Assembly: GCA_002787535.1 (NCBI GenBank)
Contig: PCXB01000050.1
Span: 8,205 to 72,204 of the forward strand
From: Deltaproteobacteria bacterium CG11_big_fil_rev_8_21_14_0_20_45_16
GTDB taxonomy: Bacteria > Bdellovibrionota > UBA2394
Length of the DNA: 64,000 nt
Direction of reading: 5' to 3'
Below, in pieces: positions 12,077 to 32,260 of the stretch. The position numbers were made by a program, and so were the translations under genes. Below the pieces are notes generated by a model. It saw nothing but the letters and a program-made list of their open reading frames with translations, did not search any database and was not told the origin of the DNA. Position 1 is the first letter of the stretch; every line of letters starts with the position of its first letter.

Positions 12077-12724
12077 CTATGCCTTTCTATTCAAAAAAGC
12101 TTTTCTTATTTTCTTTGAAGCCTTCACTAGTTGAGATGGCACCAATTTTTCGACTGACAAAGGCACTTCGATTTCCAAGGCAATCATCTGTGAAACTATA
12201 TAGCCAAGATCCGCCTTTGGTTGAGATTCAAAAATTGCCTTTATATCATCAGCGTCTGCAAATCTCGTCGAATCGTTAGACAAAGAATAGAACTTGGCGA
12301 TGATCATATCTTCGAGAGTCAAGCAAGGTATTTCCAAACTGCCAAACTTGAGCACATTGCTTTGAGCTCTATCCAATGCTTTTTGAAACCACGGCATCGC
12401 TGGAAGAATAAAATCAATACCCACATGACCCTCTTTTCTCCCAACCAAAATATAAAGTGGGGATGACTTCCTCCTGACCACATGCTTTGGGCCTCCTTCA
12501 AGATTTGCCTTGCGAGCTTCTCGAATTTGAAGATTGAAGTCCGTCAGAATTTTCCTGGCGGCGCCTTCCGAGCTAGTTTCCGAATAGATCAAGAAATCAA
12601 GATCGTCAGTTGTTCTCTTATTCTTCCGATAGGTCGAGCTCGCCAAGCCTCCCGCGAGAGCAAATAAAAGCCTTTCCTCCCTCAGACGTTCGACCAGAAG
12701 TCTAGCTTGCTCAACGAGATCCAT
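12077..12724 (-). CDS. AbiEii-like nucleotidyltransferase (putative toxin / abortive-infection effector)
   Basis: 215 aa. The N-terminal LFALAGGLASSTYRKNKRTTDDLDFLI matches the hGG-x-A...Y...R-x-[ST]-x-D-[IL]-D-[FL] core of AbiEii/DUF1814-type polymerase-beta-fold NTases. Its start overlaps the stop of the upstream wHTH gene (12724). Confidence 0.6.
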   Translation of the reverse strand: MDLVEQARLLVERLREERLLFALAGGLASSTYRKNKRTTDDLDFLIYSETSSEGAARKILTDFNLQIREARKANLEGGPKHVVRRKSSPLYILVGRKEGHVGIDFILPAMPWFQKALDRAQSNVLKFGSLEIPCLTLEDMIIAKFYSLSNDSTRFADADDIKAIFESQPKADLGYIVSQMIALEIEVPLSVEKLVPSQLVKASKKIRKAFLNRKA

Positions 12725-13116
12725 TAGCGACTCGATGAAAATAATTGATTAACAGATTGTGCAAATTTATGAGCCTTTGTTGCTTCAGGTTGATGCGTGA
12801 TCGATCTAATTTTTATTTCAGATTTTTCAATTTGCGCAAATATATTCTTTAGTTCCTCATAAAGTGGGTGGCTTTGGTCCATCTGAAACAAGCGATTGTG
12901 CTTGGAGGGGGAATCGCGAACAATTTTTTGCTTTGACAGTGCGTCTAGAGCAACGACTACGGATCGGATCGGTAAATTGAGTAGATTTGCGACTGTCCTA
13001 AGCGGGATGGGTTGCGAGTATTGAATCAAAAGTTTTAGTACCTTGAATTTAGCCCTAGAACTAAAAATGTCAGCGATCTCAGTCATTACTTTTGTATTGT
13101 ATAATATTTTATACAA
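12724..13116 (-). CDS. Winged-helix DNA-binding protein (putative AbiEi-like antitoxin/regulator)
   Basis: 130 aa with an HTH-like region (...PLRTVANLLNLPIRSVVVALDALSKQKIV...), the first gene of a two-gene unit with the NTase. The start is either TTG at 13116 or ATG at 13086. A perfect palindrome overlaps the 5' end. Confidence 0.5.
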   Translation of the reverse strand: MYKILYNTKVMTEIADIFSSRAKFKVLKLLIQYSQPIPLRTVANLLNLPIRSVVVALDALSKQKIVRDSPSKHNRLFQMDQSHPLYEELKNIFAQIEKSEIKIRSITHQPEATKAHKFAQSVNQLFSSSR

Positions 13117-27406: not shown

Positions 27407-28232
27407 GGGGTCAGGGCGGTTAAGTGCCAGGTAATCTTATATATGAGCTTTCCGGAAAGTTGCATAGATTTTCGGTTTATGGATGAAAAAGTGGATCAAC
27501 ATCCTGAATTGCCCGGCATTGGGGTGGGATTGCGAATTGCATTATGTTCTCAGATAATGTCACGAACAAGACGCCTCGAAATGCCTGGCGCCTACTATCA
27601 TATAATGAACCGTGGTCTTGCCAAGCAAACCATTGTTTTTGATCACGCCGATTTCGATTACTTTACTAAGGGCTTGAAGGAGATTTCAGAACTCTACGAC
27701 GTAGAGATTTTTGCCTATTGTTTGATGAGTAACCATTATCATCTGCTGATTAGAACGCGCATACCCAACTTATCACGGGCGATGCGCCACTTTGGTCATA
27801 CTTTTACGCAACGAGTCAATCTACGTGTTAAACGAGACGGCCCACTTTTTCGTGGGCGATTCAAGTCGCTATTGGTTTGTGATGATTCTTATTTGCTTCA
27901 ATTAGTCCGCTATATTCATCGTAATCCCGTGAAGGCCGGAATTGTTGAGAGAGTCCGAGACTATGAATGGTCGAGTGCTTTAGGCTATGAAAGCCCCAGT
28001 TTTCCAGTATGGCTCTCGCGAGATGAAATTCTTAGCAGATTCAATAGTAACAGGAAGTCAGCTTCCAAGGCTTATTGTGAGTTTGTTGAAAACGAGAGCT
28101 CGGGGGAGCTTGAAGCTTTTTATTCACGTCAAAGGCTCGGAGATCGCTTAACGGAAGAACGAATTCTTCGTGCTCATGAAAATGCAATTAAAGAAGGTCG
28201 GAGCTTACCTGGCACTTAACCGCCCTGACCCC
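27407..28232 (+). mobile_element. 826-bp element: RAYT/IS200-like Y1 transposase gene flanked by perfect 27-bp inverted repeats
   Basis: Left repeat GGGGTCAGGGCGGTTAAGTGCCAGGTA (27407-27433) and right repeat TACCTGGCACTTAACCGCCCTGACCCC (28206-28232) are exact reverse complements. No target-site duplication is visible. The element disrupts the MATE gene on one side and supplies the last 14 codons of the hydrolase gene on the other. Confidence 0.75.
27557..28219 (+). CDS. Y1 HUH tyrosine transposase, IS200-like / REP-associated (RAYT-like)
   Basis: YYHIMNRG...CLMSNHYHLLIRT holds the HUH motif HYH. VRYIHRNPVKAGIV matches the YIHxNPVKxG catalytic-Tyr motif of RAYT/IS200-like proteins. The ORF track starts at 27443, but the family-typical start is MSRTRRLEMPGAYYH at 27557 (in frame). 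Confidence 0.7.
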   Translation: MSRTRRLEMPGAYYHIMNRGLAKQTIVFDHADFDYFTKGLKEISELYDVEIFAYCLMSNHYHLLIRTRIPNLSRAMRHFGHTFTQRVNLRVKRDGPLFRGRFKSLLVCDDSYLLQLVRYIHRNPVKAGIVERVRDYEWSSALGYESPSFPVWLSRDEILSRFNSNRKSASKAYCEFVENESSGELEAFYSRQRLGDRLTEERILRAHENAIKEGRSLPGT

Positions 28233-29558: not shown

Positions 29559-30797
29559 ATGGGGTTTTTCAGGGCTAAAATAGGCATAGGGCTTGCAAAT
29601 TTTAGAATCGTGATTCGTAGGCTTTCTTCTATCCTTCTGAGTTTAGTTTTAAGTACGTCCGTTTTGGCGCAAACGGAAGACGATAAAAAGTTTGTAATGA
29701 TTCTTAGTGGTCAGGATGAGTCGGCGCCGATTAAGACGCCGAATGTTTGGTCAAAGGCTCTCAGCGAAATTTTATTACATTATGATTTAACTAGAGCTTC
29801 AAAGATTGAAGCTCTTCCCGATCTCCGTGTGCCGGACGGATTGAGTGAAACGAGTCAAAAAAAATTAGAGTACCTTTATAGTGTTTATTTAAAATTTAGG
29901 ACTGAATCGCCAAAATCAAGATGGTTTCTTGAGACAAGACTGCCGGAGCTTATTGGCGATCTTTCAAAGTCTTTTGAGGCCGAGAGAGATTTGAGGCCGG
30001 CCGATGGCTCTCCAGTTCAAGCTTGCCCGCCGGACGCTGGAGGCGTCGAAGATTTTGTGAACGAGGCAACAAGGACCGGCGAAGCCCGTGTTGAAGCAAT
30101 CGATATCGCCGCTTGGAAAAATAACTGGAGCCCGCGAGTTGCTGCCGCGTTTATTCGTCAGAAAATTAAAGATTATTCCTTTGCTTTAAATGCCCCTATT
30201 GTTTCGCGGGAGAGTTCGGGAATGAAGCCCCCTAAAAGTGATATCAATCAATGGGCTCCTAACGCGGCTATACGAAGAATTATCGTTCATCATACGGTTA
30301 CCTCGAATAAACTTACGGCGACTGATATTCAGCAAATGCATTTTGATAACCCGACAGAAAAATACTCCGATGTCGCCTACCACTTTCTGATTGGGGATGA
30401 TGGAAAAATTTATGAAGGTCGAGAACTAAAATATAAGGGGGGTCATTCTGAAAACAATAATGATGACTCTATCGGCATCACCTTTATTCGAAATAGCCAG
30501 TCCTTTGATGCCATCAATAATCCATCGGGTTGGACCGATCCCAAAGACGCGCCCCCTTCCCCTGAAGCCCTTTTGGCCTTTGCGCAGCTTGTTCACTCTT
30601 TAGAAACACCAGGAGCCAAGCTTCATGATCAGCTTGTGAATCAAAATCTTAGAGTCGAATTTCGGCATATCATCGGGCATACTCATACGAAAGCTACGGA
30701 TTGTCCTGGGGATGGATGCTTAGAGGCGGTCAAAGCTTTTGATGATGTTATGATGGTCGAGCCAAAGGCAGCGGCTAAGGAGAAGAAGAAAAAATGA
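29559..30797 (+). CDS. Secreted N-acetylmuramoyl-L-alanine amidase (Amidase_2/PGRP domain) with N-terminal unknown domain
   Basis: The C-terminal domain has ...IIVHHTVTS...DVAYHFLIGDDGKIYEGR...IGHTHTKATDCPG, the zinc-ligand pattern of amidase_2/PGRP. A signal-peptide-like N-terminus is present. Confidence 0.7.
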   Translation: MGFFRAKIGIGLANFRIVIRRLSSILLSLVLSTSVLAQTEDDKKFVMILSGQDESAPIKTPNVWSKALSEILLHYDLTRASKIEALPDLRVPDGLSETSQKKLEYLYSVYLKFRTESPKSRWFLETRLPELIGDLSKSFEAERDLRPADGSPVQACPPDAGGVEDFVNEATRTGEARVEAIDIAAWKNNWSPRVAAAFIRQKIKDYSFALNAPIVSRESSGMKPPKSDINQWAPNAAIRRIIVHHTVTSNKLTATDIQQMHFDNPTEKYSDVAYHFLIGDDGKIYEGRELKYKGGHSENNNDDSIGITFIRNSQSFDAINNPSGWTDPKDAPPSPEALLAFAQLVHSLETPGAKLHDQLVNQNLRVEFRHIIGHTHTKATDCPGDGCLEAVKAFDDVMMVEPKAAAKEKKKK

Positions 30798-31210
30798 AAG
30801 CTTTTGTTGAAAAATTGAGTTTATGTTTTCTCTTGGCGGCGAGTTTTTCTTTGCATGCAAGTGCCTCGAAACCTAAGGAAGAAAAAGAAAGCTTGCAGAA
30901 AACAAAAGTAAAAGTATTTCTAGAGGATTATGCCTCAAAGATCGGCACAGCTTCCAAGGCAGAGATCGCTGTCTATTATACGGAACGTTTGAAAAATATT
31001 TTAGGCCCCAAGCTTTTGGAGAATCTATCTTCCACTAAGGCCTTTGATTCTAAAGAAGTCGAAATTTTGGATTTCAAGGAGAAGGGCGATAGGGTTTTTG
31101 TAAAATGGAATATTAAAGGTCGGGATACTAAGCTTTCAAAATGGTATGTTTTGATTCCGTCTAAGGAAAAGACGCCTTATCAGATCTTCGATATCACCGA
31201 AGATCTCTAA
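30794..31210 (+). CDS. Hypothetical secreted protein
   Basis: 138 aa with signal peptide MKAFVEKLSLCFLLAASFSLHASA. Shares a 4-nt ATGA overlap with the upstream gene. Confidence 0.5.
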   Translation: MKAFVEKLSLCFLLAASFSLHASASKPKEEKESLQKTKVKVFLEDYASKIGTASKAEIAVYYTERLKNILGPKLLENLSSTKAFDSKEVEILDFKEKGDRVFVKWNIKGRDTKLSKWYVLIPSKEKTPYQIFDITEDL

Positions 31211-31230: not shown

Positions 31231-31259
31231 TTGACGCCATATGTGACGTCAGTTATGCT
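31231..31259 (+). promoter_or_regulatory. Near-consensus sigma70-type promoter (TTGACG-17 nt-TATGCT) with internal TGACGTCA palindrome; would give a leaderless transcript for the NTase gene
   Basis: -35 at 31231-36 and -10 at 31254-59 with 17 nt spacing. The GTG start of the downstream CDS lies 6 nt after the -10. The palindrome TGACGTCA at 31243-50 sits in the spacer. Confidence 0.4.
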
Positions 31260-31264
31260 AAATT

Positions 31265-31672
31265 GTGAATCGGATCGTCATCAAAGAGCTAGTGGATGAA
31301 TTGGTAGATAAACTGCCTGGCGATTGGGTGTTACTAGGAGGCTCGTTGCTATCCTACTTAAATATTTCAGATCGGCAAACTTATGATATCGATCTTGCCC
31401 CCAAGGGAAAAATTTCAAACGATATAACTTTGGCGGCCATGGAGATTGCCTCAAAAAAGGGGATGCCTCCAGAGGCGATCAATTTTTCTGTAGCATACTT
31501 TCTTAAAAAGCAGAGGTCTTGGGAGTCGGAATTGATTTTGATTCGGAAAACCAAATCATCTCGGCTGTTTCGTCCTACAAAGAAACTTTTTCGAAAATTA
31601 AAGGAAGCTAGAGGGACAGAGACAGATATTAGAGACATAGAATTGTACGAATCTGGAGTAGAAGATCGGTGA
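31265..31672 (+). CDS. Minimal AbiEii-like nucleotidyltransferase
   Basis: 135 aa. VLLGGSLLSYLNISDRQTYDIDLAPK carries the same GG...Y...R-x-T-x-DIDL core as the 215-aa NTase at 12077-12724. GTG start. Confidence 0.55.
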   Translation: MNRIVIKELVDELVDKLPGDWVLLGGSLLSYLNISDRQTYDIDLAPKGKISNDITLAAMEIASKKGMPPEAINFSVAYFLKKQRSWESELILIRKTKSSRLFRPTKKLFRKLKEARGTETDIRDIELYESGVEDR

Positions 31673-32205
31673 GGGAGTTTGGCCAATTTTTGAAGGTCTT
31701 GCGAGTTGAAACTGGGCTTTCCCAAAGGGAGCTCGCTAAGTTATCGAAGGTAAGTTTCCGTCAGATTCAGCGGATCGAAAAAGGCCAATGTGACCCAAGT
31801 CTCGGGCTCGCTGACTTGCTTTTCAAACAGTTTCGCGTTGAGCTGAAGCCTCTATATGAAGAGCCAGATTGGGGATTCCTGTCCAGTATCGGGTGGCCAA
31901 TGATTGATTCATATCAGCAGAAGGAAAGGGCTAAGAGAGTGAGCTGGACGAGGGTATCCGGCGAAATAATCTATGCAGCTAAATATATTTTAAGAAATCG
32001 AAATGAATTTTCTGACGACCGTCATTTTGATGCCATGAAAGCCTTATTATTTGCCTTGAAAACGCACTATCCAACGAAGTTCCGAGAACTCGAAGCGATT
32101 CTGGGTCCTAAATTTCTCAAACCCTATGAGCTGGCGGAAATCCGGGGAAGAGATATTAAGCTCCGTAATATTTCATTGGGACGGCTATATAAATACCTTT
32201 CGTAA
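31669..32205 (+). CDS. XRE-family HTH protein with C-terminal domain of unknown function (putative partner of the NTase)
   Basis: 178 aa. The N-terminal LRVETGLSQRELAKLSKVSFRQIQRIEKG is a Cro/C1-type HTH. The GTG start overlaps the NTase stop by 4 nt. Confidence 0.55.
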   Translation: MREFGQFLKVLRVETGLSQRELAKLSKVSFRQIQRIEKGQCDPSLGLADLLFKQFRVELKPLYEEPDWGFLSSIGWPMIDSYQQKERAKRVSWTRVSGEIIYAAKYILRNRNEFSDDRHFDAMKALLFALKTHYPTKFRELEAILGPKFLKPYELAEIRGRDIKLRNISLGRLYKYLS

Positions 32206-32260
32206 ATTCTGGAGAGAAGGCTTGCAAGGTGGATGTTCATAGAGGCATCCTTAGGCTTAT

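Follow-up and report, generated by a model that had tools for sequence, protein, structure and literature searches.

The 64,000-nt stretch of DNA analysed here (the window; contig PCXB01000050.1, positions 8,205–72,204 of the forward strand, assembly GCA_002787535.1) comes from a groundwater metagenome-assembled genome (MAG) deposited as "Deltaproteobacteria bacterium". At positions 31231–32205 it carries two small overlapping genes behind a promoter. They encode a 135-aa nucleotidyltransferase (NTase) and a 178-aa protein, HTH-X, in which a helix-turn-helix (HTH) domain of the XRE family precedes an all-alpha domain, called X here. As judged from sequence comparison, the pair is most likely a new variant of NTase toxin–antitoxin (TA) systems, and on balance we favour its reading as an autoregulated, bicistronic NTase TA-like module. 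The analysis establishes the fold and motifs of the NTase, the pairing of NTase with X, the coupling of the two genes, the footprint of an operator, and an asymmetry in the decay of the two genes. A first-pass annotation of the sequence had suggested an NTase/HTH variant of TA systems. What stands of it is a conserved, coupled pair, undescribed in the literature searched; the essential partner turned out to be X, the HTH being absent in Spirochaetota and in most of the soil versions.

The nucleotidyltransferase

The NTase gene (31265–31672, plus strand) starts with GTG, and its frame is open for merely one codon 5′ of this GTG, from 31262. The GGS..Y..R.T.DIDL core reported in the first-pass annotation was confirmed as L24-G25-G26-S27...Y31...R37-Q-T39-Y-D41-I-D43-L. 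The key residues are G25, G26, R37, T39, D41, D43, E70, N73, R103, K113, R116, D121, and D124, and the AlphaFold2 model, obtained with a 66-sequence alignment, has a pLDDT of 92.8. The signature of AbiEii/DUF1814 was defined by Dy et al. as hG[G/S], a spacer longer than the 9–13 of Pol-beta, DhD, and an Arg located four residues before the first Asp (PMC3985639). Mutation of this family-specific Arg abolishes AbiEii toxicity (PMC3985639). Motifs I and II of AbiEii are present in the window protein (L24-G25-G26, a 14-residue spacer, R37, and D41-I-D43). Among the 66 sequences, G25, G26, and R37/T39/D41 are invariant or nearly so, T39 being invariant in all of them. The residues K113, R116, D121, and D124 (K-E-A-R-G-T-E-T-D-I-R-D-I) are also invariant and resemble AbiEii motifs III (Lys/Arg, KLxAaxxR-like) and IV, with Thr preceding D121 where the motif IV pentad (+DxxD) of AbiEii has Lys or Arg. 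Their putative counterparts in AbiEii would be K173, R180, and D192. The chain stops a few residues past the D-x-x-D helix, and a C-terminal domain is absent.

Profile searches connect the protein with several NTase families. Pfam DUF6036 (PF19502) matches it with an E-value of 0.014 and 15.6 bits (cut-off 23.6), residues 12–126 aligning with profile positions 12–116 of 164. Pfam AbiEii/DUF1814 (PF08843) matches with an E-value of 0.043 and 14.2 bits (cut-off 22.5), residues 17–59 aligning with positions 11–56 of 238, and the PADLOC AbiEii model matches the N-terminus with an E-value of 3.5e-6. In the NTase family, 50 of the 66 members match DUF6036 at E<0.01 (best 1.9e-7) and 41 match AbiEii at the same threshold (best 1.1e-6). 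The family profile compared with the PDB matched 5uvd and MenT1, and in the profile alignment T39 and D41 of the NTase fall on T39 and D41 of MenT1. The model resembles ANT(2''), LnuA, and MenT1 in structure, with a Pol-beta NTase fold close to the MenT structures, and the MNT antitoxins of HEPN-MNT systems reached structural match scores of merely 4.3–4.8 against it. When tested for the MNT type (COG1708/COG1669, NTP_transf_2), the window NTase did not qualify. Formally, it lies outside AbiEii/DUF1814, with a score under the Pfam threshold, no C-terminal half, and no AbiEi, and also outside DUF6036. The 135-aa protein is a minimal NTase of the AbiEii/MenT/DUF6036 lineage with an apparently complete active site. 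It would be the smallest NTase of the AbiEii/MenT lineage so far, holding all catalytic motifs without an accessory domain.

The HTH-X protein and the X domain

The second gene (31669–32205, plus strand) also starts with GTG, and the AlphaFold2 model of its 178-aa product has a pLDDT of 93.8. The first-pass annotation was right in dividing this protein into a Cro/C1-type HTH and a C-terminal domain without a family match. The XRE/Cro-C1 HTH domain (31669–31848, plus strand; residues ~1–60) is recognized by Pfam HTH_3 at residues 8–59 with an E-value of 2.9e-9, above the Pfam cut-off, and has a lambda-repressor-like fold. Its recognition helix, S29-F-R-Q-I-Q-R-I-E37, is nearly invariant in clade A, the group of NTase-first loci described below. 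The X domain (31855–32202, plus strand; residues ~63–178, ~115 aa) is all-alpha, with helices modelled at residues 68–74, 93–109, 118–133, 135–145, 147–153, and 160–177. Its motifs are EPDW (65–68), G75/P77, R118..D121..K124, K-T-H133-Y-P135, and G160-R-D-I-K164-L-R-N-I168.

Residues ~63–178 gave no match in Pfam, NCBIfam, or PADLOC, the only matches being those of the HTH elsewhere in the protein. When 129 X members were scanned against Pfam, no family besides HTH models was found, and X profiles compared with PDB sequences revealed no relative (best E-value 0.76). HMMER, run exhaustively with a profile of X alone, yielded 282 cluster representatives in 1.84 billion proteins, mostly HTH+X proteins of ~170 aa and some X-only proteins of ~110–130 aa. 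X is an undescribed domain. The suggestion that the C-terminal domain might be HEPN or kinase-like was not borne out, as the alignments contain no conserved HEPN R-x4-6-H (R118 and H133 are 15 residues apart), no HEPN family matches, and no kinase signature was found. Two further candidates were set aside: a match of Pfam HMUDK_hel to X (E-value 0.094) was dismissed as noise, and the idea that X is the C-terminal half of a full-length AbiEii was rejected, since hhalign gave a probability of 0.2% against a 215-aa AbiEii-family protein encoded elsewhere in the window.

Pairing of the NTase with X

A word-indexed search of 5.8 billion proteins returned 5 close homologues of the NTase and 10 of the 178-aa protein. 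With the NTase profile, ~80 close proteins of 134–145 aa were found, together with a tier of relatives of 165–195 aa; a few of the latter carry the label AbiEii/AbiGii in public databases. Gene pairing was followed in a metagenome survey in which NTase peptide patterns served as seeds and the flanks were searched with X, HTH, and NTase hidden Markov models; the survey was not exhaustive. The X gene directly adjoins the NTase in 61 of the 67 distinct metagenomic loci. Among the six loci lacking an adjacent X, three are cut by a contig end on the side concerned, two are partial NTase matches, and one is a real exception (L071). Viewed from the other side, an NTase gene or its remnant lies immediately upstream of every one of the 10 close relatives of HTH-X but P0015, an X alone in a Bacteriovoracaceae MAG. 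The first-pass annotation had named missing co-occurrence and missing conservation as what would speak against the pair, and the survey clearly found the opposite of both.

Three arrangements were observed. In arrangement A, an NTase of ~135 aa is followed by HTH-X (the window and Bacteriovoracaceae-like relatives) or by X alone (Spirochaetota MAGs). In arrangement B, an NTase of ~175 aa is preceded on the same strand by HTH-X (10 loci) or by X (4 loci). In arrangement C, found in 43 loci, mostly of high GC content, X alone is divergent from the NTase. The invariant partnership is the one between NTase and X, and the HTH is an optional addition to it. The inverted order, with the NTase first, which the first-pass annotation had emphasized, is conserved in clade A and is a feature of this clade only, as the ~175-aa relatives have HTH-X upstream or X divergent.

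In the divergent pairs of X and ~175-aa NTase (L037 and L043–L092; e.g., L058:2780–2860, L046:1393–1468, or L062:2433–2514), the start codons are located ~18–22 nt apart, as in the example ...CAT tgccgatagttacatagc ATG.... With this spacing, both genes must be leaderless, and their promoters must either overlap or be located within the coding region of the opposite gene. A separate observation concerns P0151, a 105-aa protein in which the C-terminal NTase motif (LYRPFKKLFRLLKEQRRTETDLM) is fused straight to the second half of X; this apparent chimera suggests a deletion across the gene junction. Weak matches to Pfam DnaB_2 (replication initiation/membrane attachment; best E-value 4.7e-4) were seen in 10 of the 66 NTase-family members, and they are probably artefacts of composition or helical structure, arising in the C-terminal extension that the ~175-aa relatives carry.

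Gene starts, promoter, and putative operator

Both open reading frames (ORFs) are real genes, because homologues of 40–70% identity keep both frames and the two AlphaFold2 models reach the high mean pLDDT values given above. They overlap by 4 nt, as had been noticed before, in a GTGA (31669–31672, plus strand) that joins the NTase stop with the HTH-X start, an arrangement of translational coupling. In clade-A orthologous loci with both genes intact, the stop/start junctions range from −4 to +4 nt. A GGAG within the 3′ end of the NTase gene (31654–31657, plus strand), 11 nt 5′ of the HTH-X GTG, is a possible Shine–Dalgarno sequence for the coupled translation of HTH-X, and GGAG or GGGAG occurs at the equivalent place in several orthologues. 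In public annotation, both products are listed as "hypothetical protein" (PIR22736.1 and PIR22737.1). The NTase is called there with 126 aa (NCBI, PIR22736.1) or 108 aa (ENA, JGI), and the second gene (PIR22737.1) with 187 aa, compared with 178 aa here. The starts giving 135 and 178 aa are favoured because the N-terminal helix and the junction are conserved. The public starts are probably miscalled, for which the lack of a Shine–Dalgarno sequence before the first gene would be the cause; diverging start calls for the NTase between gene callers are expected when a gene is leaderless. With 0.431, the pair is close in GC content to the window (0.455). A 138-aa ORF at 30794–31210 was considered as a part of the module and ruled out, as it overlaps the amidase stop and conservation with the pair is absent.

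A consensus scan located a sigma-70-type promoter (31231–31259, plus strand) with a −35 box TTGACG at 31231–31236, a 17-nt spacer, and a −10 box TATGCT at 31254–31259, 5 nt before the NTase GTG. This is the promoter with a TGACGTCA palindrome that the first-pass annotation had pointed out. The probable operator, TGACGCCATATGTGACGTCA (31232–31251), is a 20-bp near-palindrome (TGACGYCATATRTGACGTCA) that takes up the −35 hexamer and the greater part of the spacer. It is built of two TGACGTCA boxes (TGACGYCA) 12 bp apart, with TGACGTCA located at 31244–31251. Neither the promoter match (3 sites found, 3.0 expected) nor the 8-mer TGACGTCA (0.47 expected) is significant alone in the window, while the 20-bp composite TGACGCCATATGTGACGTCA is unique in it (0.01 expected). 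The significance of promoter and palindrome comes from their conservation across orthologous loci and not from the window alone.

In nine distinct clade-A HTH-X loci, the block TTGACGYCRTWTRTGRCGYCA is nearly invariant, with 16 invariant columns, and the ~35 nt 5′ of it are unconserved. The block is followed after 17–18 nt by a TATAAT-like box and after a further 5–8 nt by the start codon. The palindrome was not found anywhere in the four clade-A loci with an HTH-less partner, yet in these X-only loci the −10 box still lies ~3–5 nt before the ATG. The pair with its putative operator is conserved across ~10 lineages. As the 20-bp palindrome is kept in the nine HTH-X loci and absent in the four HTH-less ones, it is the likely operator, and the HTH domain probably binds it at 31232–31251. 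In arrangement-B loci, the −10 box likewise adjoins the start codon, and both the palindromes and the recognition helices differ from those of clade A. One of the loci with X upstream (L041:2399–2500) has a perfect 20-bp palindrome, ACACCTAATATATTAGGTGT, right before a −10-like box and the ATG of HTH-X; it is a lineage-specific counterpart of the predicted window operator.

The transcript of the pair appears to be leaderless or nearly so, since the conserved spacing between −10 box and start codon leaves no space for a Shine–Dalgarno sequence. The suggestion of a promoter placed at the very start of the gene is in line with the layout of the nine orthologous loci. The palindrome goes together with the HTH, and the leaderless layout with the family as a whole, which gives strong comparative support to the promoter, the leaderless idea, and autorepression.

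Decay of the two genes and polarity of the pair

Many of the metagenome contigs are short and of low coverage, and single frameshifts in them may be errors. Several loci retain HTH-X after the NTase was destroyed, in events independent of one another. One contig (L028) is 99.86% identical to window positions 31494–32219 and has an intact HTH-X, while an IS91-family transposase of 455 aa (Y2_Tnp/Zn_Tnp_IS91; L028:1–1943) replaces the promoter and the first 76 NTase codons. In L009–L012, compared with the intact sister L025:579–983, a 168-nt in-frame deletion between two 8-bp ATTGAAGG direct repeats removes the NTase core. Four samples, all from one study, have the deletion; the intact allele was seen in another metagenome. 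The IS91 insertion and the repeat-flanked deletion, the latter seen in at least four samples, are not errors of this kind. Furthermore, the NTase is frameshifted in L095, carries D43N in its catalytic pair in L019, and has its expected position occupied by insertion sequence (IS) remnants in L021. In an X-seeded genome scan, an intact NTase was kept in 2 of 6 loci. The mean column identity is 67% for the NTase and 48–52% for the second protein.

The repeated destruction of the NTase with HTH-X intact, together with the occurrence of X alone and of the NTase almost never alone, points to the NTase as the toxin and X as the antitoxin, as far as gene decay can indicate it. The decay asymmetry and the higher conservation of the NTase argue against a reverse polarity of the HEPN-MNT kind. 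In Bacteriovoracaceae bacterium UBA2394 (L005–L008 and L017), an orphan X-only gene of 130 aa, with no NTase nearby, lies between three genes with FHA/Yop-YscD_cpl domains and an ankyrin-repeat gene. In one assembly, a VapB-like ORF is called just upstream of it.

Proposed mechanism and alternative explanations

The pair has the generic layout of type II-like TA systems, i.e., two small, co-oriented, and coupled genes, a conserved pairing, and a variable context. In the mechanism proposed here, the sigma-70-type promoter would start the transcript at the first GTG or a few bases from it, as the conserved geometry implies, giving a leaderless mRNA. The 135-aa NTase with its Pol-beta fold would be the toxin and, by analogy to MenT, would block growth by adding nucleotides to RNA, for example to tRNA 3′ ends. 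HTH-X would be made by translational coupling at GTGA, and its X domain would act as the cognate partner neutralizing the NTase. The neutralization might occur by sequestration or, possibly, by auto-phosphorylation of Thr39, as with T39 of MenT1 and the MenA antitoxins. A dimer of the XRE HTH would repress the operon by binding to the 20-bp palindrome, which overlaps both the −35 box and the spacer.

Several observations weigh against this TA-like reading. In E. coli, a leaderless mRNA with GTG as its start codon is translated inefficiently, although other bacteria accept it. The window NTase scores under the curated cut-offs of both the AbiEii and DUF6036 Pfam models, and the best structural matches of its model include nucleotidyltransferases of small molecules (antibiotics). 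In 43 of the 61 X-adjacent loci, X has no DNA-binding domain and is divergent from the NTase, which is unusual for TA pairs. The polar residues of X are strongly conserved (R118, H133, and K164, and R161/R166 in the clade) and look, from the alignments, more ligand-binding or catalytic than expected of a simple sequestering antitoxin. Finally, one low-coverage contig (L024) has an intact NTase with a frameshifted, split X, which may be an assembly error.

The same conserved residues belong to an alternative in which the two proteins are subunits of one enzyme, the NTase providing the catalytic core and the all-alpha X the substrate-binding half. Such a complex would nucleotidylate a small molecule (an antibiotic) or RNA, and in some lineages the HTH would make its expression ligand-responsive. 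The 135-aa chain, ending after its D-x-x-D helix, would fit it, as ANT(2''), LnuA, and kanamycin NTase carry their own C-terminal helical domain. X, with ~115 aa, is helical and has an invariant R/H/K cluster (R118/H133/K164) suggesting a phosphate or nucleotide pocket. A link between NTase and X that persists in three arrangements, the divergent one included, is also more in keeping with a functional complex than with a classic addiction operon. The NTase model matches AadB and LnuA, and a like ambiguity was raised for MNT-HEPN by Makarova et al. (PMC2701414). However, the likeness to AadB/LnuA is at the level of fold only (10–17% identity), whereas sequence profiles lead to AbiEii, DUF6036, and MenT1. 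The NTase is repeatedly lost with X intact and orphan X exists, which would be unexpected for a mere enzyme subunit. In addition, the ~175-aa NTase relatives, which have their own C-terminal extension, still need X, and no link of the module to resistance genes, plasmids, or phages was found. We regard the two-subunit enzyme as unlikely.

Improbable to a higher degree is a polarity reversed as in HEPN-MNT (type VII) systems, in which X would be the toxin, e.g., an RNase, and the NTase an antitoxin nucleotidylating it. The order and sizes of the genes, with a small NTase first and an overlapping helical partner of ~115–130 aa second, mirror MNT-HEPN (PMC2701414), and conserved Arg, His, and Lys are present in X. 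Yet X has no HEPN R-x4-6-H, R118 and H133 being 15 residues apart, and the putative autorepressor HTH is fused to X, the usual position for an antitoxin. An intact HTH-X beside an NTase destroyed by IS91, deletion, or frameshift, as well as an intact orphan X, would be lethal if X were toxic, and it is X that occurs without the NTase, the converse being found almost never. A further explanation, in which an ordinary transcription factor of the XRE family happens to lie next to a small ORF unrelated to it, adjacency and promoter both being coincidental, is scarcely credible. Neither the single promoter match nor a single TGACGTCA is significant in the window alone, and the public records of both genes name no function beyond "hypothetical protein". 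Against coincidence stand the conservation of pair and operator in the lineages mentioned above and two models of high-confidence folds, and the co-occurrence in 61 of 67 loci is judged to refute it.

A more far-reaching reading can be put forward only tentatively: X would be a new antitoxin or regulatory domain for an unrecognized clade of miniature MenT/AbiEii-like NTases, with a mechanism unlike those of AbiEi and MenA, and the whole family, divergent pairs included, would be leaderless. Examples of such a mechanism would be an Arg/His/Lys pocket entering the active site, triggering Thr39 auto-phosphorylation, or reversing the modification. If this is true, divergent pairs with starts ~20 nt apart imply an unusual shared promoter architecture.

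Comparison with known systems

With AbiE, the module shares a Pol-beta NTase with hG[GS], a long spacer, and R-x3-D-h-D, and the residues that follow resemble the basic motif and the D-x-x-D motif of AbiEii. It is likewise bicistronic with a DNA-binding partner, and AbiEii models (PADLOC, Pfam) are among its nearest named matches. In AbiE, the DNA-binding partner autoregulates expression via inverted repeats in the promoter (PMC3985639, PMC7319586). The differences are, however, considerable. The window NTase has 135 aa, AbiEii ~290 aa, and only the first ~45 of 238 Pfam positions align, below cut-off. The partner consists here of an XRE HTH and the all-alpha X, whereas AbiEi has a winged HTH (COG5340) and an NTase-like C-terminal domain, and no AbiEi family matched the 178-aa protein at E<=1. 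The partner gene is located downstream in clade A and upstream in the case of AbiEi, and the transcript is predicted here to be leaderless.

Toxins of the MenT group act by the addition of nucleotides to the acceptor stems of tRNA (PMC10435456, PMC7450476). In MenT1, T39 is auto-phosphorylated upon antitoxin binding and D41 is catalytic, the D41A substitution abolishing the reaction (PMC11375011). The R-x-T39-x-D41-x-D motif of MenAT1 from Mycobacterium tuberculosis aligns with the window NTase residue for residue; on the other hand, the two proteins share 14% identity, and MenT1 is longer by 60 aa. The antitoxin MenA1, a peptide of 68 aa with two helices, does not bind DNA, menAT1 is not autoregulated, and the antitoxin gene comes first there, in contrast to the NTase-first window module. 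HEPN-MNT (type VII) systems are similar in having a small NTase first and an overlapping helical partner of ~115–130 aa second, and in being mobile, often without a DNA-binding domain, as are the X-only versions here. They differ in that X has no Rx4-6H and the decay patterns point to the opposite polarity. The module is not a HEPN-MNT pair.

A precedent in concept is Xress-MNTss of Streptococcus suis, in which an XRE antitoxin and an NTase toxin are autoregulated at a palindrome-containing promoter (PMC8406773). Compared by description only, the window pair would likewise combine an XRE-HTH antitoxin with an NTase toxin and a palindromic, autoregulated promoter, but in S. suis Xre is encoded first, the toxin is described as kanamycin-NTase-like, and an X-like domain is not reported. 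DUF6036 (PF19502) is similar in that its model covers most of the window NTase and matches 50 of the 66 family members; it differs in the sub-threshold score of the window protein itself (15.6 bits, cut-off 23.6) and in having no described function or partner. The literature search returned no paper mentioning DUF6036 and none describing an NTase/HTH-X pairing. ANT(2'')-Ia (AadB) and LnuA, with 10–17% identity, each consist of a single chain that includes a C-terminal helical domain, and a resistance context is absent here. As a concept, the pairing of an NTase toxin with an XRE antitoxin is already known from S. suis (PMC8406773). The novelty lies in the X domain and its near-obligate association with a distinct clade of small NTases, found in three arrangements, as well as in the extreme minimization of the putative toxin and the predicted leaderless expression throughout the family.

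NTase toxins (AbiEii, MenT) are emerging as a class of toxins that block translation and of effectors in phage defence, and their antitoxins are strikingly diverse. To these the module would add an unannotated partner domain, confidently modelled, spread over a few hundred protein clusters, and linked almost one-to-one with the NTase. It would also provide a natural experiment, in which an XRE HTH is tied to a specific 20-bp putative operator on a leaderless promoter. With its small size, the module could be used as a minimal model of substrate choice and switching-off in NTase toxins.

Genomic context

The pair is flanked by the gene of an Amidase_2 protein with a small coupled ORF and by the gene of a TerC membrane protein; further out, GatA/GatB, aminotransferase, thiolase, and carbamoyl-phosphate synthase genes are found. 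In the orthologous pairs, the flanking genes are different in every lineage, and the phyletic spread is patchy (Bacteriovoracaceae-like, Spirochaetota, soil metagenomes). No relatives were found on viral contigs, and no plasmid relatives of the window NTase or of one soil relative; for the 178-aa protein, there were HTH matches only. As orthologous pairs are located in entirely different contexts, the pair is a solitary mobile cassette in a housekeeping region and not a part of a defence or TA island. The first-pass annotation had proposed a defence-related or TA-rich neighbourhood from the presence of two NTase pairs. This view was not supported, since 18 kb separate the two pairs and the genes lying between and around these are housekeeping genes.

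The other pair, at 12080–13116 (minus strand), contains the 215-aa AbiEii-family protein mentioned above (12080–12724, minus strand; Pfam AbiEii E-value 1.6e-8), the "islet NTase" of the first-pass annotation. A 130-aa protein preceding it, without a Pfam match, is possibly a winged-helix antitoxin. The core said to be common to both NTases was recovered: the islet protein has GGL...Y...R-T-T-D-D-L-D, and hhalign aligned 40 columns with an E-value of 0.006 in that stretch only. The two pairs are unrelated, as had been assumed; the islet pair was rejected as a copy of the same system, because the X and NTase profiles have no match there and motifs I and II alone align. Finally, the ORF at 27443–28219 (plus strand), 3 kb upstream of the NTase/HTH-X pair, encodes 258 aa with a Y1 transposase domain of the IS200-like kind (Y1_Tnp, E-value 8.8e-9); it is flanked by the genes of a MatE transporter and of a DUF2920/peptidase S9-like protein.

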